Below, in pieces: positions 22,929 through 44,170 of a DNA stretch of 64,000 nt (positions are counted from its first letter, which is position 1; the number at the start of each line of letters is the position of its first letter). Under the pieces are notes generated by a model. It saw only the letters and a program-made list of their open reading frames with translations. It did no database searches and was not told the DNA's origin. This stretch comes from an uncultured Gemmatimonadaceae bacterium (GTDB taxonomy: Bacteria; Gemmatimonadota; Gemmatimonadetes; Gemmatimonadales; Gemmatimonadaceae). The stretch is from NCBI GenBank assembly GCA_963781585.1, contig CAWAGQ010000007.1:320001-384000 (forward strand). Direction: 5' to 3'. The position numbers and the translations under genes were made by a program.

Positions 22929-22933
22929 AGACC

Positions 22934-23278: not shown

Positions 23279-23283
23279 GACCG

Positions 23284-26292: not shown

Positions 26293-27699
26293 CTAGAATG
26301 CGAACCAGATGTACAGGTACAGCGCGTCATTATCGCGCGCGTTCCGGCCGGCGGCGGACACATCGTAGGAAGTCGCCGACCCGTTGAACCGCTGGTACAG
26401 TACGTACTGTAGTCCCAGACGCGTGTTGAGCCACGGATTCACGGCGAACTCGACGATCTCACCGCTCGTCCGTGGACTCCCCGACCGGCTTCCGCTCACC
26501 GGTGCGGCGGTGTACTGCAAAACATCTCGCGATCCAGTCGTGGCGAAATACGCCAACGAGGTGGAATAGGTGGTCCCGAAGCCGTAGAGCGCGCTCAGGC
26601 GCAGGGAATTCAGCGAGTTGGATCCATTCGCGGATGCCGGCGGCGAGAGCGCGCGGGATCCGGCCGGCGATTGCCGTTCGTGCGTGAAGCTTGCTCGACC
26701 AACTATCAGACGATTGTTCCTCTCGTGTTCGATTTGCGCGTCCACCCCGACATCGGTGTAGCCGTTCGCCGGCGTCGATGACCCTGCAGGGTAGACGTGC
26801 GCCCAGAGACCGAACGTCCCGACCATCAGGTAGAAGGGTCCGGTGCGATTCTGCAATGCCACACGCCAGTACGGCGCGATGCCTCGCGTCGTATTGGCTT
26901 CTGTGGAATCGACCAGCGTACGTGGTCCCTGCGGGGCCGAGGCGTACCCAGTCACCTCGGCGTACAGCATGTTGCCGATCAAGGCGTAGCCACCCAGGCC
27001 GAGAACCGATTGCGCGAGCGCACCGTCCACGACGGGGGCGGCGCTCGGGTGCGGTGCGAGCCCCGGCGACGTGAATGGATAGCTCCACGCCGGCGCAGTG
27101 TTCCACACGTCCTGCACGGTCGGATTGTTGTGCAGGGTCAGGCCGTACAGCACATCCTGTTGCCCCACCCTCGTGTGCGACGCGAAGCGCAGGTCCGAAT
27201 TGTCGATCCCGATCTTTCCACTGATGTCCTCGTAGGTCACCTGGATCAACGTCCCCAGCTTTGGGCTGATCTCTCCGCCCAGAAACAGGCTCAATTCCTG
27301 CGGATACTCGCTGCGCGCAGCCGGTGTCCCCGGCAGAGCCTTCCGCACTCGCGTCGCCGAGACGACCGCCATGAGCGACAGGCCAGGTATTGGCGAGAGC
27401 TCGAGTGACCTCCGCGACGCGCTGTCCAGCTGTTCGACGATCTGCGGAAGGCCGGACAGCGTATACCCGTTGAGTTTGAAGAGCCGCCCGAAACGCGTGA
27501 GTTGCGGGAATCCTCCCAGGTGGCAAACGGCGCAACTGAGCTTCATCTGCCGCGCGAAGGAGGGAGTGCGTGCGGCCACGCGGCGAGCGAGCGCCGCGAC
27601 GGGCACTGGATGGCTGCCCTCGCGAGCGGCTTCGTGGTGCGCTCGCGGTATGCTTGCGACGACCGAAAGCGCTGCGGACAGGGTCAGCACGCCCTTCAT
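26293..27699 (-). CDS. Cyc2-like fused monoheme cytochrome c / outer-membrane porin
   Basis: PSFARQMKLSCAVCH..PQLTRFGRLFKLNGY; HNNPTVQDVWNTAPAW; beta-signal C-terminus YLYIWFAF. Confidence 0.8.
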   Translation of the reverse strand: MKGVLTLSAALSVVASIPRAHHEAAREGSHPVPVAALARRVAARTPSFARQMKLSCAVCHLGGFPQLTRFGRLFKLNGYTLSGLPQIVEQLDSASRRSLELSPIPGLSLMAVVSATRVRKALPGTPAARSEYPQELSLFLGGEISPKLGTLIQVTYEDISGKIGIDNSDLRFASHTRVGQQDVLYGLTLHNNPTVQDVWNTAPAWSYPFTSPGLAPHPSAAPVVDGALAQSVLGLGGYALIGNMLYAEVTGYASAPQGPRTLVDSTEANTTRGIAPYWRVALQNRTGPFYLMVGTFGLWAHVYPAGSSTPANGYTDVGVDAQIEHERNNRLIVGRASFTHERQSPAGSRALSPPASANGSNSLNSLRLSALYGFGTTYSTSLAYFATTGSRDVLQYTAAPVSGSRSGSPRTSGEIVEFAVNPWLNTRLGLQYVLYQRFNGSATSYDVSAAGRNARDNDALYLYIWFAF

Positions 27700-28082
27700 G
27701 GCTTCACCTTGCCCTGGCCGACCGACCACACGTAGGACGCCACACTGAGGGCGTCGGAGCGCGAGATGCCGCCGGGAAAGGCGACCATGAGCGTCGAAGG
27801 GACGCCATGGGTAACCACGAAGAAGATGTTCTTGAATTCACCGTTCTTGGCGTCTCGCCACTTGTGCGCCTTGAGTGTCGGCGCGACCTGCGTGCCCTCG
27901 AGGTGCGGGCCGTGACAGGCGAAACACGTCCCCTTGCCGTGAAAGATCGCGCGGCCCGCGTCGACCATCACCGGAGTGATGGCACTGGTGTCAGGTTCGG
28001 CCGGCACGGCTTGCTGCCCCCCTTGCCAGAGAATAGCCAGCAGCGCGCACGCGGACGCCAGTCGACCCTGAGGCCGCCACAT
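27696..28082 (-). CDS. Periplasmic monoheme cytochrome c
   Basis: Signal peptide; CFACHG; distal Met (TLMVAF); ATGA overlap with the next gene. Confidence 0.88.
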   Translation of the reverse strand: MWRPQGRLASACALLAILWQGGQQAVPAEPDTSAITPVMVDAGRAIFHGKGTCFACHGPHLEGTQVAPTLKAHKWRDAKNGEFKNIFFVVTHGVPSTLMVAFPGGISRSDALSVASYVWSVGQGKVKP

Positions 28083-28104: not shown

Positions 28105-29505
28105 CTAGTACGCGAACCAGAGGTAGAGATACAGCGTGTTGTTGTCGTGCGCGCTGCGACCGTTCGGCGTCACGTCATACGCCGAAGACGATCCGTTGAA
28201 CTTCTGATAAATGACGTACTGGGCGCCAAGTCGCACATTCAGCCAGGGGTTCACCGTAAGCTCGACAGTTTCTCCGGAACTCGCCGGACTTCCAGTGCGG
28301 CTTCCGGTCACCGGCGCCGTGTCGTAGAGCACATGATCGGTCGAACCGGACACACCGAAGTACCCAACTGTGAGCGTCTTCTGCTGGTCAGGGAGGAACG
28401 ACAGGTTGAACTTGTAGGAGTTCAACTTGTTCGAGTTGTGTTCGGCCTCGTCCGCCGGGAATGACGCTGACAGCGTCTGGCTCTCGTGGATGTAGCTTGC
28501 GCGACCGATGAGCATGCCGTTCCCGACCTTGTGCTCGAGCTGGCCATCGACGCCGACGTCCGTGAAGTGATTGGTGGGCCCGATGATGCCGGTGGGGTAG
28601 ATCTGCGCGGAGAGTCCGAACGCCCCGAGCATGAGGTACGACGATCCGAAGTCGTGCTGCACAGCAAGGCGCCAGTAGGGAGAGACGGTCCGGGTCGTAT
28701 TCTCGGCGCTGTCGTCCAGCGGCAGCGTCGTCCCCTGTGGCGCGGCCACATATCCCGTGAGTTCGGCGTAAACCGTGTTGTCGATGAGCGAGTACGCTCC
28801 CAACCCGAGCACCGACTGCGCCAGCGCATCTTCGATGACGGTCGCCGCCGCGGGTGTCGGAGCCACGCTCGCCGAGGTGAAGGGGTAACTCCACGCCGGC
28901 GTCGAGTTCCACACGTCCTGCACCGTGGGGTTGTTGTGCAGCGTCACACCGTAGAGGAGATCGCGGTCGTGTATCATGGTGTGACTGGCGAAGCGAATGT
29001 CGATATTGTCGATCCCGATCGTCCCCGCCTGATCCTCGTAGGTGAATTGGCTGAAGATGCCCATCTTGGGCGCGATGGCCGATGCGGCGAACAGACTGAT
29101 CTCCTGGGGAAACTGCGCCGTCAGGGTCTGGCTGTTTGGAGTCGCCGTGGCGATGTGCGTCTCGTCGATGATCGCCATCAGGGAAATCGGCGCGATTGGC
29201 AAGAGCTGGAGCTGCGTCGCCGACGCGCTGTCCTTCTGGGCGACAATAGACTCCAGTCCGTTCAGCGTGTATCCGTTGAGCTTGAAGAGGCGGCCAAATG
29301 GCGTGAGTTGCGGAAACCCGTTGTGGCACGCGGTGCAGGCAAGCTTCGTCTGCCGCGAAAAGCTCGGAACCCGCAAGCGGGCGACCACCGCAGCAAACGC
29401 CGCGTGGCTCCCGATCTCCGGTGCAGTCGAACTGGGCCGGACCGCGCCCGTACGAGGGGCCGTTCCCAGGTGCAGCGTGGTGACAATGGCGGCGAACATC
29501 AGCAT
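28105..29505 (-). CDS. Cyc2-like fused monoheme cytochrome c / porin (paralog)
   Basis: PSFSRQTKLACTACH..PQLTPFGRLFKLNGY; HNNPTVQDVWNSTPAW; C-terminus YLYLWFAY. Confidence 0.8.
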   Translation of the reverse strand: MLMFAAIVTTLHLGTAPRTGAVRPSSTAPEIGSHAAFAAVVARLRVPSFSRQTKLACTACHNGFPQLTPFGRLFKLNGYTLNGLESIVAQKDSASATQLQLLPIAPISLMAIIDETHIATATPNSQTLTAQFPQEISLFAASAIAPKMGIFSQFTYEDQAGTIGIDNIDIRFASHTMIHDRDLLYGVTLHNNPTVQDVWNSTPAWSYPFTSASVAPTPAAATVIEDALAQSVLGLGAYSLIDNTVYAELTGYVAAPQGTTLPLDDSAENTTRTVSPYWRLAVQHDFGSSYLMLGAFGLSAQIYPTGIIGPTNHFTDVGVDGQLEHKVGNGMLIGRASYIHESQTLSASFPADEAEHNSNKLNSYKFNLSFLPDQQKTLTVGYFGVSGSTDHVLYDTAPVTGSRTGSPASSGETVELTVNPWLNVRLGAQYVIYQKFNGSSSAYDVTPNGRSAHDNNTLYLYLWFAY

Positions 29506-29913
29506 GGGGAGCTCCGTGGCTGAAACTTCAGCAGGATGAAGCCAGCATCGACGCCTGCGAGAATCTCCGAGGCCGCGTCGGCGCGTCAAGTCCCGCGGGT
29601 GCGAATCACAATTCGGGACAGTTGCCCGCATCGGGGTCTTCCGTTGCCCAGCGCGATGGGGACCTACGTCACCTGGGCGAAGGTGACCGACAACAGACTG
29701 AAGGATAGTGGGAAATGCCAGACACCGTGTCGGGGATCTCCCGACAAGGCGAGACACGCTGGATTGACGCATCGCGCCGCCGCCCCGCTGCAGAGTTCCG
29801 CCAGGCGCCGGGCGCCTCGCTTCGTGCGAAGAAAGGCAGCAGGCTCGTGCCTAACGAATTGGAATCATGCGTCTCGCGGACATTTCACGGCGCTATGCCG
29901 CAGTACTTGATCG

Positions 29914-29930
29914 CTGGCGTTCTTATTGCG
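29914..29930 (+). promoter_or_regulatory. Candidate sigma54 (-24/-12) promoter
   Basis: CTGGCGTTCTTATTGCG gives GG-N10-GC with TGGC/TTGC cores, 150 bp upstream of ORF 30080. Confidence 0.5.
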
Positions 29931-30003
29931 CGCCACACCCTGCACGGGCGCTGACCGCACAGGACGCTGCGTCACGAGCGCAATTCGTCAGGTACGCACG
30001 AGC

Positions 30004-30032
30004 TTGACACAATTCGAAAGCACCGGTACCGT
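30004..30032 (+). promoter_or_regulatory. Candidate sigma70 promoter
   Basis: TTGACA-17-TACCGT upstream of ORF 30080. Confidence 0.5.
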
Positions 30033-30079
30033 GTGCGCTCCCTGCACCGCACGTTGGCGCTGAACCGCGGTAGGCTGCG

Positions 30080-30619
30080 ATGGCTGACCTGGATATCACG
30101 TCCAGCTCCACGAACACGGTCGATGTCGTCGGTCTGAATGACATCAAGGCGGATCTCAAGCTCGAGTTGCCGCAGCCGCTGAAGACCGAGTCGTCGTACG
30201 ACTACGACATCAAGGCCGAGGTCGGTACGAAGTCGGATCTTGCGATCGAGCCGCTCAAGGCCGATCTCGGGACCACATCGCGGCTGGCAATCGATCCCCT
30301 CAAGACCGACAGCAGCGTCACCCTCGACCTGAAGCCGGCGGTGGTGGACCTCTGCCTCACGCTGAACATCGGCAAGGTGCCGAGCGTGTGCATCCGCCAG
30401 CCCTACTACCATCACTTCGGATTCACGCTCTTCGGCACCGAGGTCTGGGGGTTCACCGTATCGGGCGAGCAGGAGACGGTGGTGCAGGAGCTGGACCGCC
30501 ATCCGCACGTTGCGGTCGGCAGCGCGACTCCGCGCTGGCCGTCGCCGCATGCGTCGTCCCCAGCGGGCCAGCCGCCGACTCGTCACGCCGGCGGACTCCG
30601 GATCCGCATCGGGCCCTAA
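30080..30619 (+). CDS. Hypothetical beta-rich protein with internal repeats (operon ORF A)
   Basis: Strong GC3 codon bias; repeats SDLAIEPLKADL / SRLAIDPLKTDS; no signal peptide. Confidence 0.8.
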   Translation: MADLDITSSSTNTVDVVGLNDIKADLKLELPQPLKTESSYDYDIKAEVGTKSDLAIEPLKADLGTTSRLAIDPLKTDSSVTLDLKPAVVDLCLTLNIGKVPSVCIRQPYYHHFGFTLFGTEVWGFTVSGEQETVVQELDRHPHVAVGSATPRWPSPHASSPAGQPPTRHAGGLRIRIGP

Positions 30620-30630
30620 CGAGACAGCAT

Positions 30631-31515
30631 GTGCCCGAGTCGCCTCCCGCTCCCCTCCGCATCGTCGGAGTCTCCGAGGCCGAGCCCATTCTGCTCAGTG
30701 GGCCGCCAGGCAGGCTGAGCGGTCGCGTCCAGCTTCAGAATCCACGCGGCGTCAGTCTCGTTTTCCGCGACGCGACGCTGAGGGATCCGTCCGGCGTCCT
30801 CACCGGCCGCCCATCGCGTCACGCTTCCGGACCGATCGTGTTGCGCCCGGCGCAGGAGCGGACAGTCCCGCTCAACGTGGCCGTCGATCCAACTACTCCT
30901 CCCGGGGACTACCGGGCCGAGGTCGACTTGATGGGCCAGTCGCGTCCGGCGCTGCTGCGCGTGGCGGAGGTGTTCGATCTGACCGTGCAGCCTGACACGC
31001 TCGTCATCGACAACCGCGCCGACAGGCCACAGCAGAAACGTGTCATCGTCACCAACGACGGGAATGTCCCATTCACGGTCGGTGACATCGGCGATGTGGG
31101 ACTCCGCGATGACGTCATCTGGGAAAGGGACCTGCGGCTCATCGTCCAGCCGTGGATCAGGAGAGACCCGGATGCCGACGAGCTCTGCAGCGCATTGCTC
31201 GCGCTGGCGCGCGAGCGAACCCCTCCCGTGAGCGTCGTTTCGGTGCGCAGTGCCGATGGAGCGGTGCACGTGCGCCCGGGAGAGACCGCCACCCTCGATC
31301 TCGCGATCACGCTCCGGGACGCTCTGCCGGCCGCCGGACGATTTCGCGGTCGTGCCGCTCTGTTGACCAGGGATCTCGACATTGTCGTCGTTTCGTCAGG
31401 CGGCCACGGGCACCACGAGGGTCCGCACCCACCGGCCCGACGCGCCGCCTTTACGCCGCCGTCCGCCAGAACTGAATCGACCAAGCCCACCAGGAAGCGA
31501 GGAGGTGGAACGTGA
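30631..31515 (+). CDS. Hypothetical protein with two Ig-like (COG1470/PapD-like) domains (ORF B)
   Basis: GTG start 11 nt after ORF A; VQLQNP..LRPAQE..PPGDYR and VIVTNDGN..VRPGET motifs. Confidence 0.75.
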   Translation: MPESPPAPLRIVGVSEAEPILLSGPPGRLSGRVQLQNPRGVSLVFRDATLRDPSGVLTGRPSRHASGPIVLRPAQERTVPLNVAVDPTTPPGDYRAEVDLMGQSRPALLRVAEVFDLTVQPDTLVIDNRADRPQQKRVIVTNDGNVPFTVGDIGDVGLRDDVIWERDLRLIVQPWIRRDPDADELCSALLALARERTPPVSVVSVRSADGAVHVRPGETATLDLAITLRDALPAAGRFRGRAALLTRDLDIVVVSSGGHGHHEGPHPPARRAAFTPPSARTESTKPTRKRGGGT

Positions 31516-32327
31516 ACGCCACCATGACAGGCACGACGCCCGACTGGATGAACCTGACATTTTCCGACTGGATGGAGCGGACGCTGCCCGGGTGGCAGGA
31601 CCGAAGCTACGGCGATCTCCTGCGGGCCACGCCCGCTGACTGGTGGGCCATGATGTATCCGTCCACGGCGACGACCGCCACACCGCCGTCGCCGTCGAAG
31701 CCCGGCTGGCGTCGACACCCGCACCATCACCACGCCGGCTGCGGCTGCCACGAACATGGCGAGCATCGTGAATGGCGGCGTGAAGAACAGCACCATCACG
31801 ATCGTCCCTGCGGCCGCTGCGCGCCTGATTCGTGCGAGTGCTTCTGCTGCATTGGAGACGTCGACCTGGCGGTCTACGCACGGCTCGGTGAGCAGCGGGT
31901 CATTCCGATCGTGGTGGAAAACGAGCGGCGTCGTGAGAAGGAGATCAGCCTCGAGCTCAGCGGCTGGACCACCCGCGGCGGAAAGCCGGCGCCAATCGAC
32001 ACGCTTGGGCTGGAACCCAAGACTTTTTCGCTGGCGCCGTGCGCGGAGCGGGAGGTGACGCTGGTCGTCAGGGCACGCGGCACCGAGAAGGGCGACTCCG
32101 CCACCGGGAGTGTGCTCGACGTCGCCGGCGCCGAGGTCTCGCGGACGCCTGGCGACACGACGTCGGCCAATCAGCCGCGCACGCCGCCGGACGTGGACAG
32201 CTGCCTGGTGGCGACCGCCGATCTCCGACTGGTGGGATGCGACCATCGGCCGCTTCGTATCGCGATCGCCATCCTGCCCCGCGACTGCGATCCATTCCGG
32301 GTGGGCTGTGGCTGCAATTGCTGCTGA
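31512..32327 (+). CDS. His/Cys-rich hypothetical protein with an Ig-like domain (ORF C)
   Basis: GTGA overlap with ORF B; HPHHHHAGCGCH, CGRC, CECFCC and C-terminal GCGCNCC. Confidence 0.8.
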   Translation: MNATMTGTTPDWMNLTFSDWMERTLPGWQDRSYGDLLRATPADWWAMMYPSTATTATPPSPSKPGWRRHPHHHHAGCGCHEHGEHREWRREEQHHHDRPCGRCAPDSCECFCCIGDVDLAVYARLGEQRVIPIVVENERRREKEISLELSGWTTRGGKPAPIDTLGLEPKTFSLAPCAEREVTLVVRARGTEKGDSATGSVLDVAGAEVSRTPGDTTSANQPRTPPDVDSCLVATADLRLVGCDHRPLRIAIAILPRDCDPFRVGCGCNCC

Positions 32328-32358
32328 CCGCGACGGCGCCGATCGGGCAGCCGATCAG

Positions 32359-33339
32359 ATGGCGTGGGCCGCGGAGTGGTCCACGTGGTACACGCAATAC
32401 CTGAGACGCGCCGCCGAACAATCGGAACGCACGCTCGATCTGTATCAGCGGGTCATCGATTGCGTGTCACGCGGAGAGCTGGCACCCAGCGCGCACCAGG
32501 ACCGTCTCAACGCGTTCTACAAGACTCGCGGCGCCACGTACGGTGCGAAGCTCTCGGATCTCACGCTGCGCTTTTTCGGCGGCGTGGTGCAGAGCTCCAC
32601 CTCCTACTCCAGAGAAATGTCGGAGGTGGTCACTCCGAACGCGGCGCCGCCACCCCCCCTGCCGAGGCTGGACCCCGCCGATCCCGCAAGGTGGTTTCAG
32701 CAACTCGCGGACTACGGCCGCGACCTGAGCGCGAATGCTGCCACAGCGTATCAGGCGTTCCTGGATCGGGTGGCCGCTGGCGAAGTGGCGCCGCGCGAGG
32801 TGCAGCTGGCTGCGGCCAGTTTCTTCGAGCGGCGCGTCCCGGAATTCCTGCATGACCTGGGCGGCCGGTATTTCGAGCTGCTGAACGGCCTCAACGATAT
32901 TCGGAGCGCCGGCGAGCAGGAGTTCCTGGCCGACCTGCTCGCCACCGCCGGTCGCGACGGGCGGGAGCCCACCCTGGCGCTGACCCTGGTCGGGCCGCTG
33001 GGAACATCCTGTACGGCGACGATCTCGCTCGCCAATACCCGGGACGAGCCCGCCCTCATTCGCTGCAGCGTGACCGACGTGCGGCGCATCGATGGCGTGG
33101 GCCCCGCGTTCATTCCACGCATCGATATCACCCCAGACCGTCTGGATCTGGCGCCCGGAGAGGAAGCCAGCCTGTCGGTCGTCGTCAGGCTCGACGAGGA
33201 CGACTACGACCCGGACGTGCCGTATGTCGGCGCCGTCTACATCACCGGTCACGGCGAGCCCCGTCTCGAGGTGCCGCTCCGGATCACCGCCACGCAGCCC
33301 GTCCAGACCGCGACGTCGGCGGACGAGCACGCGATGTAG
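32359..33339 (+). CDS. Hypothetical protein with a duplicated helical N-domain and an Ig-like C-domain (ORF D)
   Basis: YQRVIDCVSRGELAP / YQAFLDRVAAGEVAP repeat; ISLANTRDEP..LAPGEE..YVGAV; the start could be slightly upstream. Confidence 0.78.
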   Translation: MAWAAEWSTWYTQYLRRAAEQSERTLDLYQRVIDCVSRGELAPSAHQDRLNAFYKTRGATYGAKLSDLTLRFFGGVVQSSTSYSREMSEVVTPNAAPPPPLPRLDPADPARWFQQLADYGRDLSANAATAYQAFLDRVAAGEVAPREVQLAAASFFERRVPEFLHDLGGRYFELLNGLNDIRSAGEQEFLADLLATAGRDGREPTLALTLVGPLGTSCTATISLANTRDEPALIRCSVTDVRRIDGVGPAFIPRIDITPDRLDLAPGEEASLSVVVRLDEDDYDPDVPYVGAVYITGHGEPRLEVPLRITATQPVQTATSADEHAM

Positions 33340-33347
33340 GAGCTGGG

Positions 33348-36300
33348 ATGAGCCGGGGGAACGGCGCCCACGCGCCACCAGCGTTCGAACCGATCGCCAT
33401 CATCGGCATGCGCGGCCGCTTTCCGGGCGCCGGCGATCTCGATCAGTACTGGGTCAACCTGGCGAACGGCGTCGAGTCCATCACCGTCCTCACCCACGAA
33501 GACATGCGCGCCGCCGGCGTGCCCGACGATATCATCGGTCTGCCCGGCTACGTCAACGCGTCGCCGATGCTCGACGCGGTCGATGAGTTCGATGCCGAGT
33601 TTTTCGGCTTCTCGGCCCGCGACGCCTCGCTCACCGACCCGCAGCACCGGTTGTTTCTGGAGACCACCTGGGAAGCCCTGGAAGACGCGGGATACGATCC
33701 GGCGGCCTACCCGGGGGCGATCGGCGTGTTCGGCGGCTGTGAGCTCAGCAGCTACCTGTACCAGCTCTATCTGCACCGGGAGTCGTTAGGCTATCTCGAC
33801 GGCATGCAGCTGATGGTCACCAACGACAAGGACCATCTCTGCACTCAGGTATCGTACCGCCTCAATCTCCGCGGGCCCAGCGTCGACGTGCAGACCACGT
33901 GTTCGACCTCCCTGGTCGCGGTCTCCCTGGCCTGCGAGAGCCTGCAGGCCGGGCGGTGCGACATGGCGCTCGCCGGGGGCGTCACGGTCCGGGTGCCGCA
34001 GCACGGCGGATACCTGTATACGCCCGGTTCGATTCTCTCCCCCGACGGACACTGCCGGCCGTTCGACGCCGAGGCACAGGGGACGATCGTGGGCAGCGGC
34101 GTCGGTATCGTGGTCCTGAAGCGACTCGAACAGGCCTTGGCCGATCACGACAACGTCCGCGCCGTCATTCTCGGGACGGGCCTGAACAACGACGGGAGCG
34201 ACAAGGCCGGGTATACGGCGCCGAGCTTCCGCGGTCAAGCGGGCGCGATCCGGACCGCCCAGGCCATGGCGCGGGTGCCGGCGGACTCGATCGGCTACGT
34301 GGAGGCCCACGGAACGGGCACCATCCTCGGCGATCCGATCGAGCTGTCCGCGCTGATCGAGGTCTTCCGCGAACAGACCGACCGGCGCGGCTTCTGCGGA
34401 ATCGGTTCCGCGAAATCGAACTTCGGTCACCTCTCGTGCGCGGCCGGAGTAGCGGGGCTGATCAAGACCGTCCTGGTGCTGGAGCACGGCGCCATTCCGC
34501 CAACGGTGCACTACACGGCGCCAAATCCGGCGATCGACCTCGCCGCCAGTCCGTTCTACGTCACGACCCGGCTCCGAAAGTGGGAGCGTAATGGATCACC
34601 ACGCCGCGCCGGCGTGAGCTCGTTCGGAGTGGGCGGTACGAACGCACACCTGGTCCTCGAGGAAGCACCGTCCCGCATCACGCCGGAAGCACAAAGCCGG
34701 CACCGGCTGCTCACCATTTCGGCGCGCACCAGGGACGGGCTGGATGCCGCGACGCGCAACCTCGCGTCACACGTCATCGCACATCCGGACCTCGACCTGG
34801 CGGACGCCGCCTTCACGCTGCACGTCGGTCGGCGGCCGTTCAAACATCGCCGCGTGCTGGTGGCGCGTGCCGACGACCGGCCGGGCCTCATCGCGGCGCT
34901 CGAGGATCCGTCGCGTCTGGGTGAGGGTGTGGCCGGCGCCGCACCGCCGGTGGTGTTCATGTTTCCCGGCCAGGGGTCCCAGTATCCGGGGATGGCGGCT
35001 GGATTGTATCACAGCGAGCCGGTCGTGCGTCGCGCGGTCGACTACTGTGCGCGCGTGCTCAAGCCGGAGCTGGGTGGCGATCTGAGACGCCTGCTCTTCC
35101 CGGCGCCGCGGCGCCGGAAGAGCGCGGCCGCGGAGCTCACCGACACGCGGTGGGCACAGCCGGCGCTCTTCACGGTGGAGTACGCCCTCGCACAACTGTG
35201 GAAATCGTGGGGAATCCCCCCGGCCGCGATGGTCGGGCACAGTGTGGGCGAGTATGTGGCGGCCACGCTCGCAGGAGTGATGACGCTGGAGGACGCGCTG
35301 GCGCTGATTGCGCGCCGCGGACAGCTCATCTCGTCGATGCCGCGCGGGTCCATGCTCGGCGTCATGGCTCCAGCGGCGACGCTCGAGCGTTTCGTGGACC
35401 ATGATATCTCGATCGCCGCGGTCAACGCTCCGTCGTACTCCGTGCTCTCCGGGCCGCATGAGGCGATCGATCGCGTGGAGGCCGCGCTCCTCAGCGAGAA
35501 CGTCGCGGCCCGGCGGCTGAAGACGTCGCACGCCTTCCACTCGGCGATGATGGAGCCGATTCTCGGCGAGTTCGAGAGCGCGGTGGCGGGGGTTCGTCTC
35601 TCCGCGCCGGCCATTCCGTTCGTTGCCACGCTGACCGGTCAATGGGCGGACGGTCCGGTGACGCAACCGGGCTACTGGAGCGGTCAGCTGCGGTCCACCG
35701 TCCGGTTCGCCGACGCGCTGCGCGCGCTCACCTCCGCCGGGAGTCCGATCGGCAAGGATCCGGTGCTGCTGGAGGTGGGTCCGGGTCGCACGCTGGTGAC
35801 CTTCGCGGCGCAATCCGCCATCAGCGACGGCCGGCCGGCCACGTGCCTGACGTCGGTGCCGGGATATGACGATGACCGGCCGGACACCGAGGTGATGCTC
35901 GGCGCGCTGGGGGAACTGTGGCTGCGCGGAGCGCCGGTCGACTGGCGTGCGTTTCACGAGCATGAGCCCCGGAAACGCGTCACGTTGCCGACGTACCCGT
36001 TCGAGCGGCGCAGCTACTGGATCGGTCCCCGGCCCGAGCGGGTGGCCACCGCGGTCCAGCCCCGCGATACGTCATCCTGGTTCCACCGGCCGGTCTGGCG
36101 TGAGGCGCCACGGGACGACGCGACCCTGGCGACGCTCGATGACCGGCGCATCCTGGTGTTCGACGAGGAATCCGGCGTCGGCGCCGCGGTGATCGGGCGC
36201 CTGCGGGCGGCCGGCGCCCGACCGCTTGTCGTTAGGCGTGGGCCGGCCTTCTCGCGCACCAACGAGGGATCCTGGACGATCGATCCCGCGCAGCCCGACG

Positions 36301-38687
36301 ACTTCCGGCGACTGGCCGCCGAGGTTTGCGCGGCCGACGATCGTCTGGCCGGTGTAGTGGATTGCTGGAGCGCCGAGCCGCCGGGGCGCACTGACCTCGA
36401 CGCCGCCGGTGTGGTGACGCTGCTCGCCCCAATGCGGCTCGCGCTCGCGCTCAGCAGCCAGCCCACCGTGCGTCCGCTGCCGATGCTGCTGGTGGCGCGC
36501 GGGGCCACCCGGGTCGATCCCGACGACGTGATCGACCCGCCGAGAGCGCTGGGAATCGGACCGGCGAAAGTCGTGCCGCAGGAGCACCCCGGACTCCGAC
36601 TGGCGCACCTCGACGTCGATGCCCACCCCGCGGTCGCCGATCAGATTCTCGCCGAGCTGGCAGCGGGCGCGTCCGAGCCGGCGGTGGCCCTGCGCGCGGG
36701 ACGCCGCTTCGTCGAAGCGTACGATCCGGTCGTGATCGAAGAGGCTCGTGCGCCGATTGCGCTGCCGGAACGCCCCGTGGTCATGATGACCGGCGGACTT
36801 GGCCACATCGGCCTGAGTCTGGCCGAAATCATGCACGCCCGGATGGGAGCGCGCCTGGCGTTGATCGGACGATCGCCACTGCCGTCGCCTGACAGGTGGA
36901 AGGCGAAGAGCGAGGACCCTTCCACACCGTTCGCCCAGCGAGATGTACTCCGACGCCTCGCGCGGCTCCGGTCCGAACGCGATGACCTGATCGTGCTGAG
37001 CGCCGACCTGAATGACCGCCAGCAACTTGTGGCGGCGGTGGATGCGGCCGTGGCGCACTTCGGGCAGATCGATCTCGTCGTGCACGGCGCGGGCCGCATC
37101 GACGCGGCGGCCTTCGGCGCGGTCGCCGATACCGGTCCCAGCGTCATGAATGCGCAGTTCTCGCCGAAGTTGCGCGGGTTGTACCAGCTCATGGAGGCGA
37201 TGCAGGGGCGCGAGCCAGGCCGGTGGATCCTGCATTCGAGTATCTCGACCGTACTCGGCGGACTCGGCCTCGCCGCGTACACCGGCGTCAATGCCGTGCT
37301 CGACGCGATCGCGATCGCGGGCGGCGATCGCTGGCTCAGCATCGACTGGGACGCGTGGGACAACGCCGCCGAGGCGCAGGTGGAAGGGATGCCCGTCGCC
37401 ATCCACCCTCCCGAGGGGCGCGACGCCTTTCTGCGACTGCTCGGCGCCGAGATCGGCCCTCGCGCAATCGTGGTCGTCAACGACCTCGAAGCTCGCGTCC
37501 GCGACTGGATCCGTCACGCCGATGGCGCGGCGAAGAACACTGCCGGCGCGGTACGCCATCCACGCCCGAACCTGTCGGTTCCATTCGAGGAACCGCGTAC
37601 CGAAACGGAGCGCAGGCTCGCCGAAATCTGGGGCGAGCAGCTCGGCGTGGCACCGGTGGGAGTGCACGATCGCTTCCTGGACCTCGGCGGCCATTCGCTG
37701 CTGGCGGTACAGGTCGCGTCCGAGATCCGCGACCAGTTCCAGATCGAAATGCCGGTGCTGCGGCTCTTCCAGGCGCCCACCGTGGGGCAACTGGCCACCA
37801 TCATCGAGCAGCTGCAGACGTCAGGCGGTTCCAACGTAAACGCGGCGGGGACGGCCGCGGCCAGGCCCGCCGCTGCGATTCCACTGCCAGCGACGCCCGT
37901 CCTCAAGGGCGACTCCCCGGCAAGTGCGGCCAAGGCCAGCTACCGCGAGTTCTACGACGACATCACGCGTCGCCTCGAACGTGCGGGCGTGGGGGCGGCG
38001 TCGTTCTTCCTCAACTATGGATACGTCAGTCTCGGCGACGGTGACGAAGCCCGGTTCGCGGTGCCCGACGGAGTCTTCAACGCGAGCTCCGTACGGCTGG
38101 CGTTCGAGCTGATCGGCGGCATCGACCTCGAAGGGCGACGCGTTCTGGACGTGGGGTCGGGGCGAGGGGGAACCGTCGCCCTCCTCGCCGACCGGTTCGG
38201 CGCGGACGGTACCGGCGTCGATCTCTCACCGGAAGCGGTCGCCTTCTGCCGGCGTACTCACCAGCAGCCTAACGTCCGGTTCGAGGTCGGTGATGCCGAA
38301 CACCTCCCCGTTGCCGATCAGTCGTTCGATGTCGTCACGAACATCGAGTCCTCGCACACCTATCCGAACCTTCGCGCGTTCTTCGTCGAAGTGCGGCGCG
38401 CGTTGGTGTCGGGGGGTTGGTTCCTCTATACGGACCTGCTTCCCGTGCAGCGCTGGGCCGAGGTCCATGTGCTGCTCACGTCGCTCGGCTTCACGCTGGC
38501 GACGGATCGGCACATCACGCCGAACGTGCTCGCCTCGTGCGATGCGGTGGCGGCTACCCGGGCACAGGCGTTCGGTGAGGAGAGCGTCCTGATGGACAAC
38601 TTCCTCGCCGTCCCCGGTTCGACCATCTACGAGCAGATGCACTCCGGCGCCTGGGAGTATCGCATCCTCCGAGCCCGTCGCGCGTGA
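33348..38687 (+). CDS. Single-module type I PKS: KS-AT-KR-ACP-methyltransferase
   Basis: KS VQTTCSTSL, EAHGTGT, KSNFGH; AT GHSVG and HAFHS; KR TGGLGHIG..YTGVN; ACP LGGHSLL; MT FLNYGY, LDVGSGRGG, NIESSHTYP. Confidence 0.93.
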   Translation: MSRGNGAHAPPAFEPIAIIGMRGRFPGAGDLDQYWVNLANGVESITVLTHEDMRAAGVPDDIIGLPGYVNASPMLDAVDEFDAEFFGFSARDASLTDPQHRLFLETTWEALEDAGYDPAAYPGAIGVFGGCELSSYLYQLYLHRESLGYLDGMQLMVTNDKDHLCTQVSYRLNLRGPSVDVQTTCSTSLVAVSLACESLQAGRCDMALAGGVTVRVPQHGGYLYTPGSILSPDGHCRPFDAEAQGTIVGSGVGIVVLKRLEQALADHDNVRAVILGTGLNNDGSDKAGYTAPSFRGQAGAIRTAQAMARVPADSIGYVEAHGTGTILGDPIELSALIEVFREQTDRRGFCGIGSAKSNFGHLSCAAGVAGLIKTVLVLEHGAIPPTVHYTAPNPAIDLAASPFYVTTRLRKWERNGSPRRAGVSSFGVGGTNAHLVLEEAPSRITPEAQSRHRLLTISARTRDGLDAATRNLASHVIAHPDLDLADAAFTLHVGRRPFKHRRVLVARADDRPGLIAALEDPSRLGEGVAGAAPPVVFMFPGQGSQYPGMAAGLYHSEPVVRRAVDYCARVLKPELGGDLRRLLFPAPRRRKSAAAELTDTRWAQPALFTVEYALAQLWKSWGIPPAAMVGHSVGEYVAATLAGVMTLEDALALIARRGQLISSMPRGSMLGVMAPAATLERFVDHDISIAAVNAPSYSVLSGPHEAIDRVEAALLSENVAARRLKTSHAFHSAMMEPILGEFESAVAGVRLSAPAIPFVATLTGQWADGPVTQPGYWSGQLRSTVRFADALRALTSAGSPIGKDPVLLEVGPGRTLVTFAAQSAISDGRPATCLTSVPGYDDDRPDTEVMLGALGELWLRGAPVDWRAFHEHEPRKRVTLPTYPFERRSYWIGPRPERVATAVQPRDTSSWFHRPVWREAPRDDATLATLDDRRILVFDEESGVGAAVIGRLRAAGARPLVVRRGPAFSRTNEGSWTIDPAQPDDFRRLAAEVCAADDRLAGVVDCWSAEPPGRTDLDAAGVVTLLAPMRLALALSSQPTVRPLPMLLVARGATRVDPDDVIDPPRALGIGPAKVVPQEHPGLRLAHLDVDAHPAVADQILAELAAGASEPAVALRAGRRFVEAYDPVVIEEARAPIALPERPVVMMTGGLGHIGLSLAEIMHARMGARLALIGRSPLPSPDRWKAKSEDPSTPFAQRDVLRRLARLRSERDDLIVLSADLNDRQQLVAAVDAAVAHFGQIDLVVHGAGRIDAAAFGAVADTGPSVMNAQFSPKLRGLYQLMEAMQGREPGRWILHSSISTVLGGLGLAAYTGVNAVLDAIAIAGGDRWLSIDWDAWDNAAEAQVEGMPVAIHPPEGRDAFLRLLGAEIGPRAIVVVNDLEARVRDWIRHADGAAKNTAGAVRHPRPNLSVPFEEPRTETERRLAEIWGEQLGVAPVGVHDRFLDLGGHSLLAVQVASEIRDQFQIEMPVLRLFQAPTVGQLATIIEQLQTSGGSNVNAAGTAAARPAAAIPLPATPVLKGDSPASAAKASYREFYDDITRRLERAGVGAASFFLNYGYVSLGDGDEARFAVPDGVFNASSVRLAFELIGGIDLEGRRVLDVGSGRGGTVALLADRFGADGTGVDLSPEAVAFCRRTHQQPNVRFEVGDAEHLPVADQSFDVVTNIESSHTYPNLRAFFVEVRRALVSGGWFLYTDLLPVQRWAEVHVLLTSLGFTLATDRHITPNVLASCDAVAATRAQAFGEESVLMDNFLAVPGSTIYEQMHSGAWEYRILRARRA

Positions 38688-39265
38688 TCGCCGTCTCGGC
38701 ATGGCTGATTGCGGTGCGTGGAGGGGCGGGCACCGATCGGGGACTGCTCGAGCTGCTCACCATGGCCGAACGTGAAACAGTTTTGCGCCTGGGCTTCGCC
38801 GCCGATCGGGATCGTGCCGTGACGGCGCGCGCGGCGGCCCGGCTCGAACTCGGTCGGCGGCTCGGCGTGCCGCCCGCGTGTGTTCCTCTCGTGAGGCAGG
38901 CGGGGGGCAAGCCGTTCGTCGACGGCCTGGGACTCGGCGTCAGCTGGTCACACAGTGGCTCCTGGATCGCGCTGGCTCTGGCGGAAGACCGGGCGGTAGG
39001 CGTGGACATCGAGCGAATTCCCGAACGTGTGCCGATCGACGCGCTCGTCAGGTTCGGCGTGACCTCGCTGGCGGACTTCGTGGCCCGTGAGGCAGCCGGC
39101 AAGGTGACGGGCCAGGGGCTGGTCGGGGACTCGCCACCCGGAGTGCGGGCCCAGGTACTCCACGCGCCCGCTGGATACCTGGCTGCCGTCGCGGCGCCGG
39201 GCGCCGACTGGTGCGTCCATGCGGCAGCGCCGATCACCACCGGCGTTCGCGCAGCCCTGGCATAG
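38684..39265 (+). CDS. 4'-phosphopantetheinyl transferase (short Sfp-like)
   Basis: GGKP, VSWSHSG, VGVDIE, FVAREAAGK; GTGA overlap with the PKS. Confidence 0.85.
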   Translation: MIAVSAWLIAVRGGAGTDRGLLELLTMAERETVLRLGFAADRDRAVTARAAARLELGRRLGVPPACVPLVRQAGGKPFVDGLGLGVSWSHSGSWIALALAEDRAVGVDIERIPERVPIDALVRFGVTSLADFVAREAAGKVTGQGLVGDSPPGVRAQVLHAPAGYLAAVAAPGADWCVHAAAPITTGVRAALA

Positions 39266-39495
39266 CGACTCTCACAGTCGTCGTCGCCATCGCGGACCGC
39301 GACCACGGCGGACGCTCGAGGCCGCATCACGCGCGGGACCCCCAAAGGAGATTTTCCTCTCGCAGTGTTACGTCATGTATCGCGACTTCCCATTGCGTGT
39401 TAGTCGCGCGACGCGCAGCACGCTACGTTTGGCACGCGGCGCTCAGCGTAACACCGCTGCTGCCGTGCTCGACCGCACGGCACGGACTCGAGGGC

Positions 39496-41529
39496 ATGAT
39501 GCCCACCCGTAGGAATGCCGTCCCTTTGCTCGCGCTGCTGGCTCTCGTTGGGCTCGGCGGGAGACGGGCGGGCGTTCCGCAGGCTGGCGCCCCTGTCACC
39601 ACACTCCGGGTTCAGGTCCGTCGCATCCCGCCAGTCGTCGGCAAGACGACGAAGGAGGCCATCGATTCGCTGTCGTGGACCCGTCTCGTGATCGTGCAGC
39701 GAGATACCGTCACGACGAGTGCTGTGGCCGGTCGCGTCGTGGCGCAGCGCCCGCCCGCCGGCACGCCTGTGAGCGCGGCGCGCGCCGAGACCCTGCTGGT
39801 CGCCACGCCGATGGCCTCCAGAACCGCGACCGTCACGCTCGCCAGCGCCGCCCTTGCCCGGGCGCGTGCGCTGGCGTCGGTCACGCCGCCGCCGACACGC
39901 AATCCGGATGATGTGGCGCACCCCGGCGCCAACGTCACGGTCACCGTACCAACCGACTCGCTCGCGATCACGGTCCCCGGCGTTCGGGTGCAGGATCGCA
40001 CCCGGGTGCCCGATCTCCACGGCGCTACGCCCGCGATGGTGGCGGGCGCCCTCAAGGAATTTCGACTCACTTCCGGCCCGGCGGTGCGCGACTTCTCCGA
40101 CGACGTTCCCGCGGGGCGAGTGTTCCAGCAGCGTCCGGCGGCGACCACGGAAGTGCCCACGTGGACCTCGGTCAGCGTCTGGTACTCGATCGGGCCGCAT
40201 CCGAGTGCCGACACGCTGACCATCCCGAGGGTGGTCGGACTCACACTGTCGCGTGCGGCAGACTCGCTGCAGCGTTCGCAGCTCGACGTTGGTCTGGTGG
40301 ACTCGATGCGCCAGGCGGGAGCGCGGGGGATCGTGGTGCACCAGCAGCCGGATGTGGGGTCGCCCGGGCACCGCGGCGACGCGGTGAATCTGTGGATCGC
40401 CGTCGGCGCTCCGACGGTCGCCGTTCCGGCGCTCATCGGCCTAACGAGGGCGGCCGCCGATGCCCGGCTGGACAACGCCGGTCTGGCGCTGGGGCGCATC
40501 ACGCTCGTCGCCCTGGTCGATCGGAAATCCGGCGTCGTCGCGCAGTCGCCGCCGGGCGGCACGCCGGTGGATTCGGGAGCCCTCGTGGATGTGGTGGAGA
40601 ACCGGCCGCCCGAGCCACGACAGGTGGCGGTCCCGGACCTCACCGGCCTCACGCCCCCGGCCGCCGAGCAGGCGCTCGAACGCGACAGTCTGTACCTGGG
40701 CCTGGTGCAGGAACCCCGCGCGTCGACACCCGGCACCGTGGTGTCGCAGACGCCGGAGGCGCGCACTCCGGTCTACCTGCACACCGCGGTCGACGTGGTG
40801 CTTGGCGCTCGCGACTCGACCATCGACCTGGTGGCGGTGCCACCGGTCGTCAACAAGACGGTCGAGTCCGCGCGCGGGCTGCTTCGCAACGCGGGCTTCA
40901 CCACCATTTCCATCCGGAGCGCGGGCGACACGGTGACCTCGTCGTCGCTGATCGAATCGCAGGTTCCCGTCGGAGGGACGCTGGTGCCGCCGGGCGCGCC
41001 GGTCGCGCTGGTGGCCGGGCCGCCCGCGGCGGCGGCGCCGCCCGTACCGGATCTGCGTGGCCTCGCTCGTGCCGATGCGGCAGCGTCCGCCGGCGTCAGC
41101 CTGCTCCAGATGGCGATCGATACCACCCTGCGACGGCTGCGTCTGCACGACATCGTCGTAAGGCAGCGTCCATCGGCCGGACCTCAGCGTCCGCCCGACA
41201 ACACGGTGCGGGTGGTGGTGGAGATCCCGTTCGTGCCTCCGGCACTGGCGGGGCTCGGACTCGGCCTCGCTGGCATCGGGGCCGCGATGATGCTGCGGCC
41301 CAGGCCGCCGCCTCCAAAGCCGCCGGCCGGCCACACGGACTCTGCGCCGCTCCCGGATGTCCACCTGCAGGAGCGTGTTCGGCGGGACCCGCCTGTCGTG
41401 GTCACCTCGGCGCACGGCTCGCTGGTTCGCGAGGCGCTGACCATGCGGTTCGCGCTCCAGTCCGGCCCGTGGAAAGTCGAGGCTGGAGCGACCTCTCTCG
41501 TGCGCTCGGAGACTCCTCGTCATGGCTGA
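39496..41529 (+). CDS. Multi-PASTA-domain membrane-anchored protein
   Basis: Signal peptide; seven (V/I)PxxxG..A repeats with VVxQxP; C-terminal TM segment and cytoplasmic tail. Confidence 0.85.
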   Translation: MMPTRRNAVPLLALLALVGLGGRRAGVPQAGAPVTTLRVQVRRIPPVVGKTTKEAIDSLSWTRLVIVQRDTVTTSAVAGRVVAQRPPAGTPVSAARAETLLVATPMASRTATVTLASAALARARALASVTPPPTRNPDDVAHPGANVTVTVPTDSLAITVPGVRVQDRTRVPDLHGATPAMVAGALKEFRLTSGPAVRDFSDDVPAGRVFQQRPAATTEVPTWTSVSVWYSIGPHPSADTLTIPRVVGLTLSRAADSLQRSQLDVGLVDSMRQAGARGIVVHQQPDVGSPGHRGDAVNLWIAVGAPTVAVPALIGLTRAAADARLDNAGLALGRITLVALVDRKSGVVAQSPPGGTPVDSGALVDVVENRPPEPRQVAVPDLTGLTPPAAEQALERDSLYLGLVQEPRASTPGTVVSQTPEARTPVYLHTAVDVVLGARDSTIDLVAVPPVVNKTVESARGLLRNAGFTTISIRSAGDTVTSSSLIESQVPVGGTLVPPGAPVALVAGPPAAAAPPVPDLRGLARADAAASAGVSLLQMAIDTTLRRLRLHDIVVRQRPSAGPQRPPDNTVRVVVEIPFVPPALAGLGLGLAGIGAAMMLRPRPPPPKPPAGHTDSAPLPDVHLQERVRRDPPVVVTSAHGSLVREALTMRFALQSGPWKVEAGATSLVRSETPRHG

Positions 41530-42997: not shown

Positions 42998-43906
42998 GTG
43001 CGCATCGGAGTCGACCTCGGCGGGACGAAGATCGAAGCCATCGCCCTCGCGGACTCGGGCGAGATCGCAGCCCGCGAGCGCGTGTCGACGCCGCCGCACG
43101 CCTACCAGGGCACGATCGACGCGGTCGCGGGTCTCGTGCGGGACGTCGAAAGAGTGGCTGGCGCCGGCGCGTCCATCGGAGTCGGCATCCCTGGCGCGAT
43201 AATACCGTCCACGGGCCTCGTGAAGAACGCCAATTCGGTTTGGCTCATCGGCAGGCCGTTGGGGCGGCATCTCGAGGACCGGCTCGGGAGGCCGGTGCGA
43301 ATCGAGAACGACGCCAACTGCTTCGCGATTTCCGAGGCTGCGGACGGGGCTGGGGCCGGTGCGGACGTCGTGTTCGGCGTGATCCTCGGCACCGGCGTGG
43401 GCGGCGGCGTCGTCGTGGGCGGACGCGTTCTGATCGGTCCGAACCTCATCGCCGGCGAGTGGGGGCACAATCCGCTGCCGTGGATCACGGATGATGAGCA
43501 CCCTGGCCCGTCGTGCTACTGCGGCAAGCACGGATGCATCGAGACATTTCTCTCGGGACCGGGCCTCGTGCGCGACTTCACCGTGGCGACAGGTCGCACC
43601 CTCTCGACCCGCGAGATCGTCGCCGCCGCGCAGCATGGCGACCCCGGGGCGGCCGCCGCGATGGACCGCTACTATGACCGGCTCGCGCGCGGGCTGGCGT
43701 CGGTCATCAATGTGCTCGATCCCGATGTCATCGTCCTCGGCGGCGGGATGTCGAACATCCCGCGACTCGCCGAGATCGCGACGGAGCGGCTGCCGGGATT
43801 TGTGTTCTCCGATTCGATGTTGACGCGCGTCGTGCGCAACATGCATGGCGACTCGAGCGGCGCCCGGGGTGCGGCGTGGCTCTGGCCGAGGGCGCGGAGC
43901 GAGTGA
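42998..43906 (+). CDS. mak: ROK-family sugar kinase (fructokinase Mak-like)
   Basis: IGVDLGGTK, ENDANCFA, GTGVGGG, GEWGHNPLP, CYCGKHGCIE. Confidence 0.88.
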   Translation: MRIGVDLGGTKIEAIALADSGEIAARERVSTPPHAYQGTIDAVAGLVRDVERVAGAGASIGVGIPGAIIPSTGLVKNANSVWLIGRPLGRHLEDRLGRPVRIENDANCFAISEAADGAGAGADVVFGVILGTGVGGGVVVGGRVLIGPNLIAGEWGHNPLPWITDDEHPGPSCYCGKHGCIETFLSGPGLVRDFTVATGRTLSTREIVAAAQHGDPGAAAAMDRYYDRLARGLASVINVLDPDVIVLGGGMSNIPRLAEIATERLPGFVFSDSMLTRVVRNMHGDSSGARGAAWLWPRARSE

Positions 43907-44121
43907 CGGCGTCGGATCGGGCGAGCGCCACGGACGCATGGAAGCTCCCCATCACGGCTTGGCGACAGGTGCGGCGCAGTCGAACCGTTTGTCGCCGTGT
44001 CGCAACGCGGCGGCCCACCAGAGGAAGCGACAGCCGCGAGCCCCGGCACTCGCGCTGGCCCGCGCCGTGGGGTGCGGCGTGCTGTGCGCGAGGCCACACG
44101 CGCGATTCCCCCAGTCATACC

Positions 44122-44163
44122 TTGCAGCCTTGTGCCGCATCCCCCCATACTTGGTGTGGGGAG
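44122..44163 (+). promoter_or_regulatory. Putative promoter and PadR operator
   Basis: TTGCAG-18-CATACT; CCCCATAC-TTG-GTGTGGGG palindrome (44143-44161) running into the RBS. Confidence 0.55.
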
Positions 44164-44170
44164 GGACTCA

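Follow-up and report, generated by a model that had tools for sequence, protein, structure and literature searches.

Four proteins of no known family form a conserved cassette with a single-module polyketide synthase in Gemmatimonadota and three other phyla

We analyzed a stretch of 64,000 nucleotides (hereafter the window) from an uncultured Gemmatimonadaceae bacterium (assembly GCA_963781585.1, contig CAWAGQ010000007.1, positions 320,001 to 384,000), in which four genes of no recognizable family, here called A to D, are followed by a gene for a type I polyketide synthase (PKS) and by a gene for a phosphopantetheinyl transferase (PPTase)-like protein (Table 1). A preliminary description, made from the letters and their open reading frames (ORFs) alone, had placed six co-oriented genes with short gaps and GTGA overlaps at 30080-39265, and the coordinates agree: A and B are 11 nt apart, B and C share a GTGA overlap, C and D are separated by 31 nt and D and the PKS gene by 8 nt, and the PKS and PPTase-like genes again overlap by GTGA. 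The GTG start of B agrees with the N-termini of its homologues. Moreover, third-position GC values of 0.80-0.86, in a genome of 68% GC, mark A, C, D and the PKS gene as coding. No terminator-like site was found between the genes of the cassette; six were detected, all of them within genes and not above the shuffled expectation. The short gaps, the overlaps and this absence of intergenic terminator-like sites are consistent with co-transcription of the cassette. In the region upstream of A, a scan for sigma-70-like promoters returned no site, and Rfam gave no match of note for the leader of approximately 300 nt (best E 0.39). Pfam and NCBIfam identified no transporter, nonribosomal peptide synthetase (NRPS), ligase or separate tailoring gene in the operon; the earlier claim to this effect holds as to separate genes, while the PKS itself carries a methyltransferase domain. 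Overall, A-D and the PKS gene make up an autonomous cassette of five genes, accompanied in the window by a PPTase-like gene.

Table 1. Genes, domains and other features of the cassette, in coordinates of the window.
Feature	Position	Strand	Description	Basis
Non-coding stretch upstream of A	29773-30079	.	Presumed promoter region	Sequence scans
Gene A	30080-30619	+	179 aa	ORF list
A, long beta-hairpin	30386-30484	+	Residues 103-135; strands 103-117 and 120-135; sole confident element	AlphaFold2 (AF2) model
Gene B	30631-31515	+	294 aa, GTG start	ORF list
Gene C	31512-32327	+	271 aa	ORF list
C, CGC, variable His-rich tract and CxCxCC cluster	31740-31850	+	Residues 77-113	22-sequence alignment
C, C-terminal cysteine cluster	32286-32324	+	C259 ... 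CGCNCC	22-sequence alignment
Gene D (D1 type)	32359-33339	+	326 aa	ORF list
D, two helical hairpins	32362-32943	+	Internal duplication; helices 2-37, 45-91, 109-139 and 145-195	AF2 model
D, PapD/MSP/ASH-type beta-sandwich	32980-33294	+	Residues 208-312	AF2 model and Foldseek against PDB
Type I PKS gene	33348-38687	+	1779 aa	ORF list, Pfam, NCBIfam
PKS, ketosynthase (KS) domain	33387-34514	+	Residues 14-389	PF00109 9e-70, PF02801 4e-40; active-site Cys and His motifs
PKS, acyltransferase (AT) domain	34953-35909	+	Residues 536-854	PF00698 1e-53; GHSVGE and HAFH motifs
PKS, ketoreductase (KR) domain with structural prefix	36075-37361	+	Residues 910-1338	NF047870 9e-20, PF08659 2e-24
PKS, acyl carrier protein (ACP) domain	37611-37799	+	Residues 1422-1484	PF00550 2.6e-16; GGHSL phosphopantetheine site
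PKS, C-terminal class I S-adenosylmethionine (SAM) methyltransferase (MT) domain	37932-38669	+	Residues 1529-1774	NF045823 and NF045825 matches below cut-off
PPTase-like gene	38684-39265	+	193 aa	ORF list, weak family matches

The same gene set was then sought elsewhere by scanning one genome per species with the D peptide RRxDGVGP[AS]F as seed, which yielded 29 loci from Acidobacteriota, Pseudomonadota (Alpha- and Gammaproteobacteria), Actinomycetota (including Mycobacterium metagenome-assembled genomes, MAGs) and Gemmatimonadota, one of the carriers being a cultured isolate, the gammaproteobacterium Luteimonas marina FR1330. At all 29 loci, tblastn places D immediately before an orthologous PKS gene and in the same orientation; the product of the latter is 58-74% identical to the window PKS over its full length, and in many of the loci the stop codon of D overlaps the start of the PKS gene. 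The possibility that D homologues occur mostly without the PKS, raised in the preliminary description, is thus not borne out by this D1-seeded scan. Genes A and C are each present in 25 of the 29 loci; for B, tblastn gave 21 loci and ORF clustering 25. In the loci without one or more of A-C (L009, L017, L020, L024 and L029) the contig ends inside or beside the cassette, so that A-C were found linked to the PKS on every contig of sufficient extent. When the ORFs from the 29 loci and the window were clustered all against all, no other family appeared in at least four loci, save for shadow ORFs and the PPTase (PPTase-like ORFs occur in 11 of the 29), and no thioesterase, ligase or transporter is conserved across the loci. 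Recurrence of one gene set in so many other genomes is more than would be expected by chance.

It had also been asked whether the order A-B-C-D and the linkage to the PKS are conserved across phyla: the linkage is, over four phyla, whereas the order is not, as approximately five arrangements were observed. The order A-B-C-D-PKS is that of the window, L001-L005 and L019, while D-PKS faces C-A-B in L006-8 and L012-14. In L010, L015, L018, L023, L025, L026 and L028, A-B-C-D2 is divergent from D1-PKS, D2 being a paralogue of D that adjoins C and is 23-30% identical to the D of the window; L011, L016, L021 and L022 read D1-PKS-(PPTase)-A-B-C-D2, and L017, L020 and L027 show mixed orders. Copies of D2 are found in L010, L011, L015, L016, L018, L021, L022, L023 and L025-L028, and the window, like the remaining loci with one D gene, has D1 only. 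That the gene set is kept through these rearrangements points to three units, namely A with B, C with D2, and D1 with the PKS. It would be highly improbable, given the conservation over four phyla, a set retained despite shuffled order and third-position GC of the coding type, that A-D lie next to the PKS but share no function with it, or that some of A-D are not real genes.

A tree of the KS-AT region (29 rows; L019 was left out, as its PKS is broken into frames) mostly follows the phyla. Gemmatimonadota form one clade (Shimodaira-Hasegawa-like approximate likelihood ratio test, SH-aLRT, 99), Actinomycetota fall to one side of a branch with weak support (SH-aLRT 53), Pseudomonadota and Acidobacteriota need two changes each, and the window PKS groups with two alphaproteobacterial MAGs (SH-aLRT 98). 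Over 20 loci, median identity was 64% for the PKS and 32%, 23%, 36% and 34% for A, B, C and D, respectively, and distances correlated with those of the PKS at r = 0.54 (A), 0.53 (B), 0.51 (C) and 0.78 (D), with Mantel p <= 0.001 in each case. Distances that track one another in this way would fit inheritance as one unit, and fast-evolving A-D beside a slow PKS would fit adaptor or structural proteins. As to L019, a locus from an acidobacterial MAG, each of the genes for B, C, D and the PKS is split over several frames at L019:8286-16290, either as pseudogenes or through assembly errors.

The PKS consists of one module, KS-AT-KR-ACP-MT (Pfam and NCBIfam), and is of type I, with KS, AT and carrier in one polypeptide together with their catalytic residues. 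Neither a dehydratase, enoylreductase, thioesterase (TE), reductase or condensation domain nor a loading domain was detected in it by Pfam and NCBIfam. Motifs were surveyed in 25 full-length copies, from 24 loci and the window; a 26th long ORF is a shadow ORF on the opposite strand. The KS motifs TTCSTS and EAHGTGT, the AT motifs GHSxGE and HAFH, the KR motif with the catalytic tyrosine, the GGHSL carrier site and SAM motif I are each present in all 25, and the second KS histidine motif, NFGHL, in 21 by strict pattern. The HAFH sequence in the AT domain is what we take to be a malonyl-specific signature. No chain-release function (TE, reductase or condensation) is found in the PKS, and no gene for one is conserved in the 29 loci. 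The last gene probably encodes a PPTase of the Sfp/HetI type, in view of weak matches to AASDHPPT_N (2.8e-5, 24.7 bits, cut-off 27), ACPS (12.2 bits, cut-off 25) and HetI (6.6e-7, 28.9 bits, cut-off 370), and of GVDIE and REAAGK-like stretches, spotted by eye, which are presumably PPTase motifs.

The MT domain is best matched by NF045823, the phthiotriol/phenolphthiotriol dimycocerosates MT (E 4.4e-40; 137.5 bits, cut-off 300; PKS residues 1529-1774 on model positions 6-251 of 256), followed by NF045825, the fatty-acid O-MT Mtf2 (9.8e-36, 123.2 bits against a cut-off of 400). With both scores below cut-off, the domain resembles these mycobacterial lipid O-methyltransferase families by sequence but is not a member of them, and its sequence matches in PDB are generic class I MTs only. 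The preliminary description spoke of a PKS-made methylated lipid; as the nearest families methylate hydroxyl groups of lipids, the methyl group most likely stands for a methoxy group and not for a C-methyl.

Such a lipid could leave the enzyme as a free small molecule, e.g., a 3-hydroxy or 3-methoxy fatty acid or methyl ester, possibly acting as a signal or membrane component, with A-D as its receptors, regulators or storage proteins and without a part in its synthesis. The resemblance of the MT domain to fatty-acid and lipid O-methyltransferases agrees with this, bacteria are known to signal with 3-hydroxy fatty-acid methyl esters, which a mycobacterial fatty-acid methyltransferase also produces, and the richness of C in Cys and His (see below) could mean metal or redox sensing. 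Nevertheless, A-D contain no DNA-binding, kinase or other signalling domain according to Pfam and NCBIfam, ORF clustering revealed no conserved exporter, and the translational coupling of D and the PKS argues for a role at the enzyme. We hold a free product of this kind to be distinctly improbable.

We then focused on the four companions of the PKS. The preliminary description had presented A-D as unknown proteins, with neither a signal peptide nor a recognizable catalytic motif, and the searches agree with this. Pfam and NCBIfam gave no match at E<=1 save for chance-level rows, and thus no enzyme family; the PADLOC anti-phage models matched neither A-D nor the PPTase-like protein; and sequence-profile searches of PDB returned nothing for C, chance-level rows for A and B, and for D one weak and uninformative match (5eur_A, 'uncharacterized protein', E 0.006). 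None of the four proteins has a 19-residue Kyte-Doolittle hydrophobic stretch above 1.56 or a signal-peptide-like N-terminus. In addition, a look-alike search for A and D in a protein-cluster atlas gave only 'hypothetical protein' clusters.

Protein A has 171 representative relatives at E<=0.001, and its core profile retrieves 308 clusters, with no Pfam domain or informative name among the 120 of these that were listed. It had been called a beta-repeat protein. A variable number of short, PLK[TA][ED]-like repeats is indeed present at the N-terminus, but the AF2 model is confident just for one beta-hairpin (predicted local distance difference test, pLDDT, 57 overall and 90-97 in block 101-130). 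Conservation is concentrated in a core, DLKPxxVDxC ... QPY ... G.E..G, and in a C-terminal GGLR[IV]R motif, and an alignment of 43 sequences identifies D83, P86, D90, C92, P108 and G119 as invariant. Many homologues begin with M(P)GGKGG[GS], a Gly/Lys-rich N-terminus absent from the A of the window. One homologue carries the JGI label 'predicted component of type VI secretion', which was discarded, as it has no Pfam support among 43 homologues.

Protein B, with invariant residues N37, N142, G144 and N145, an N.GN motif and a basic C-terminal tail, probably consists of two beta-sandwich domains. The weak signals behind this assignment, and behind the earlier term 'Ig-like', are sub-threshold matches of its homologues to fn3_5 (10 of 23) and NPCBM_assoc (8 of 23), and an hhalign match of its first domain to the sandwich of D (E 4.8e-4, probability 32%). 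Profile comparison further gave E 1.8e-3 (15%) between B and C and E 0.062 between C and D (probability 0.9%, chance level), similarities too weak to claim common descent of the sandwich domains of B, C and D. Complex prediction for B (residues 1-262) with A, from separate alignments, scored 0.00 in two runs, which speaks neither for nor against binding.

The earlier characterization of C as His/Cys-rich is accurate: its 271 residues include 16 Cys and 12 His. A central, conserved, beta-rich domain of approximately 150 aa is flanked by cysteine clusters. In the alignment of 22 sequences about 13 cysteines are conserved; they make up a CGC and a CxCxCC cluster, four isolated positions and a second CxCxCC at the C-terminus. 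Of these, C77, C108, C110, C112 and C177 are invariant and C113, C231, C243, C259, C266, C268 and C271 nearly so; C259, C266, C268 and C271 are each conserved in at least 90% of the sequences. The His-rich tract differs widely in length among homologues. The cysteines are probably metal ligands, in which case C would be a metal-stapled protein.

Conserved cysteines without a conserved release domain or gene also raise the possibility of protein lipidation, in which the PKS would pass its acyl chain, by transthioesterification or acyl transfer, to the invariant C92 of A or to the conserved CxCxCC at the end of C, and the sandwich proteins would shield or ferry the modified partner. There is an analogy in the eukaryotic beta-sandwich proteins RhoGDI and PDE-delta, which hold lipidated C-termini. 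On the other hand, Pfam and NCBIfam detected no acyltransferase or condensation domain for such a transfer, the approximately 13 conserved cysteines of C look more like metal ligands than acylation sites, and no precedent was found in the full-text literature searched; lipidation is, in our view, rather unlikely. Its elaborated form, in which a 3-methoxy-acyl chain would be off-loaded onto a cysteine of A or C, and B and D would hold the lipidated proteins or organize them into a lipid-protein body, appears just as doubtful.

Protein D, previously taken for an amphipathic helical repeat, is the only one of the four for which a confident overall model was obtained (AF2, pLDDT 92.2, predicted TM score 0.66). 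Four long helices are indeed predicted, yet a C-terminal beta-sandwich had been missed. The helical hairpins are an internal duplication: the two halves match each other in tblastn (e.g., in L005 and L016), and W7 and W112 are nearly invariant; this part of the model had no informative Foldseek match among the matches listed. The sandwich, in contrast, matched in PDB the chaperones Caf1M, PapD, FimC and SfaE, the major sperm protein (MSP) domain of VAP-A, MSP itself, and the ASH domains of CEP192 and OCRL, with E values from 2e-6 to 3e-5 and a probability of 1.00; for MSP/ASH domains, the TM score normalized to the target was 0.45-0.57. As modelled, it fits the seven-stranded, s-type Ig-like sandwich of the PapD/MSP/ASH superfamily, superimposable on domain 1 of PapD or on the MSP domain. 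By sequence, D itself has no Pfam match at E<=1 and does not reach the gathering scores of PapD_N, ASH or Motile_Sperm, while its homologues match PapD_N in 7 of 60 cases and ASH in 4 of 60, below threshold. A predicted fold shared with PapD-family, MSP and ASH domains points to a protein-binding module and, as D has no signal peptide, to one that is cytoplasmic and not periplasmic. The loop V/LRRxDGVGPAF of the sandwich is kept in every PKS-adjacent D1 and deleted in the D2 paralogues. A near-length search found 119 relatives of D, which, where named, belong to Acidobacteriota, Alphaproteobacteria and Chloroflexota. Among the homologues, P0115 (448 aa) has two consecutive beta-sandwich domains, i.e., a domain duplication. 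Two gene calls that seemed to fuse D to a KS (P0049 and P0124) were rejected as evidence of fusion, since both run into frameshifted sequence.

The predicted fold of D would fit a larger assembly and, equally, a small complex centred on the PKS. In the former case, A-D would self-assemble into an intracellular or envelope-associated coat, inclusion shell or filament, which holds the PKS lipid or is decorated by it. Proteins without enzyme domains, in fixed co-occurrence and tightly packed operons, are in keeping with such a structure, and the sandwich of D resembles the fold of MSP, which polymerizes into filaments in nematode sperm. Furthermore, A is mostly unstructured on its own apart from one long beta-hairpin, as might be expected of a subunit that folds on assembly, and the long helical hairpins of D could coat a hydrophobic surface. 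However, Pfam, NCBIfam and ORF clustering revealed neither an assembly ATPase or nucleator nor a known family of shell or filament proteins, and PapD/MSP/ASH domains are mostly one-to-one binding modules. The strict coupling of D to the PKS also suggests docking on the enzyme rather than bulk structure, and we regard a coat, shell or filament as unlikely.

We instead favour, tentatively and with a probability of about 0.4, the reading that A-D are cytoplasmic partners of the PKS, with D docking on the enzyme and A-C receiving, holding or passing on a 3-hydroxy- or 3-methoxy-acyl product. It is favoured by the absence of a recognizable catalytic domain in A-D, the protein-binding fold of D, the coupling of D to the PKS and the absence of a release function; the gene set, its linkage, its domain content and the intact catalytic motifs are directly supported, as is the fold of D as a prediction. 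According to this reading, the KS would take a fatty-acyl primer, the AT would add one malonyl unit, the KR would reduce the 3-keto group to give a 3-hydroxyacyl thioester, and the MT domain would methylate the 3-hydroxyl. This would leave a 3-hydroxy- or 3-methoxy-acyl chain bound to the ACP, while iterative use of the module would yield a polymethoxy chain. D, with its helical hairpin bundle and PapD/MSP-type sandwich, would dock on the PKS, and its partners would be the probably metal-stapled C with its cysteine clusters, the sandwich-rich B, and A, largely unfolded save for its beta-hairpin and carrying an invariant cysteine. Together, A-D would make up a complex around the PKS and take the part of a thioesterase by accepting, holding or handing over the lipid.

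Several points weigh against this proposal. The product of the PKS, the docking of D and the hand-off are all steps that we infer, and a thioesterase encoded elsewhere in the genome may release the product. The specificity of the MT domain is deduced from matches to family models below threshold, and O-methylation of a 3-hydroxyl, formation of a carboxyl methyl ester and methylation of a protein are indistinguishable for it by sequence. The correlation of distances would also be expected from shared ancestry alone, and a scan seeded on a D1 peptide is blind to A, B or C without the PKS, and to PKS orthologues without A-D. In addition, the sandwich nature of B and C is suggested by weak profile matches, of which that between C and D is at chance level. 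Lastly, no D fused within a longer protein was found, which is weak evidence, and one gene call in which D seems to run on into a KS start degenerates into frameshifts, which suggests a fault of assembly.

PKS clusters are usually read as sets of enzymes, tailoring functions and export; here, a synthase with 57-76% identity between phyla has as its sole conserved companions four proteins without a recognizable enzyme domain, of apparently undescribed families, and at least one of them is predicted to have a fold that serves protein docking. If A-D do replace the release step, the cassette would reveal a new exit route for PKS products from the carrier, for which a covalent or non-covalent transfer to a protein partner could account. 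Four protein families would moreover gain a first function, among which A (308 clusters) and D (119 relatives) are widespread in public genomes and metagenomes. A PKS-driven system of protein lipidation and assembly, should it prove to be one, would have no described counterpart in bacteria. As Luteimonas marina FR1330 is a cultured carrier, the question is open to experiment.

Regarding the surroundings of the cassette, none of the genes that flank it in the window, for PadR, permeases of the ADOP/MacB type, a protein with PASTA repeats and a ROK kinase, is conserved in the 29 loci. An ORF of 772 aa at 39211-41529 (+) abuts or overlaps the end of the PPTase-like gene and has six PASTA repeats; a PknB-PASTA kinase model matches the PASTA part only, and no kinase or transpeptidase domain was detected in the first ~250 aa. 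At 22883-25820, 43876-47238 and 50235-52985 lie a PadR gene followed by a duplicated permease of the ADOP family, a model named for Acidobacteria, and two further permeases of the MacB/FtsX type. Upstream of the cassette, two candidate ORFs at 26293-27729 (-; 478 aa) and 28105-29772 (-; 555 aa) have no Pfam or NCBIfam match and sit in DNA of lower GC (0.63 versus 0.68-0.70), and a small ORF at 25832-26254 (-) has a sub-threshold match to HvfX (5.4e-12, 46 bits against a cut-off of 80), a model related to the maturation of copper-binding ribosomally synthesized and post-translationally modified peptides (RiPPs).

Compared with known systems, the C-terminal domain of D shares, in the predicted structure, the fold of the PapD/MSP/ASH superfamily. 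It differs from PapD chaperones in having a single sandwich instead of two domains and no signal peptide, and with no usher or pilin family nearby the locus is not of the chaperone-usher type; D further differs from all these families by its four-helix hairpin bundle, an addition to the sandwich for which they have no counterpart. CxC and CC cysteine clusters are a metallothionein-like pattern, and C resembles it in its CGC, CxCxCC and terminal CxCxCC beside a His-rich tract, but its clusters flank a conserved beta-rich domain of ~150 aa and it has no family match. PKS-RiPP hybrids, the lipolanthine-type clusters, lipidate ribosomal peptides and are similar in that a PKS is co-encoded with ribosomally made proteins that could accept an acyl chain. 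They are set apart in that neither the operon nor the conserved part of the loci provides a maturation enzyme, ligase, acyltransferase, protease or exporter, and in that A-D are proteins of 179-326 aa, at least one of which is predicted to fold.

The mycobacterial lipid pathways are the remaining comparison. Here, the MT domain differs from the phthiotriol/phenolphthiotriol dimycocerosates MT in being fused behind an ACP, and it is not an equivalog. The acyl chain of mycobacterial glycopeptidolipid is 3-hydroxylated. In one account of glycopeptidolipid synthesis, a Pks supplies the fatty-acyl part in Pks-bound form, a separate lipid O-methyltransferase, Fmt, methylates a hydroxyl of the lipid moiety, and the acyltransferase PapA3 transfers the Pks-bound acid (PMC1885439). 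The MT domain of the window resembles this lipid module (Pks, Fmt/Mtf2, PapA3 and FadD23) in matching the Mtf2 model, at 9.8e-36 and below cut-off. In the window, however, the MT is fused to the PKS, and FadD ligase, PapA, NRPS and MmpL transporter are lacking; four proteins without a known family stand in place of those partners. A search of the full-text literature, in which subscription journals are thinly covered, found no description of the cassette. It is a real, conserved and apparently undescribed system, unusual for its companions and not for its enzyme.

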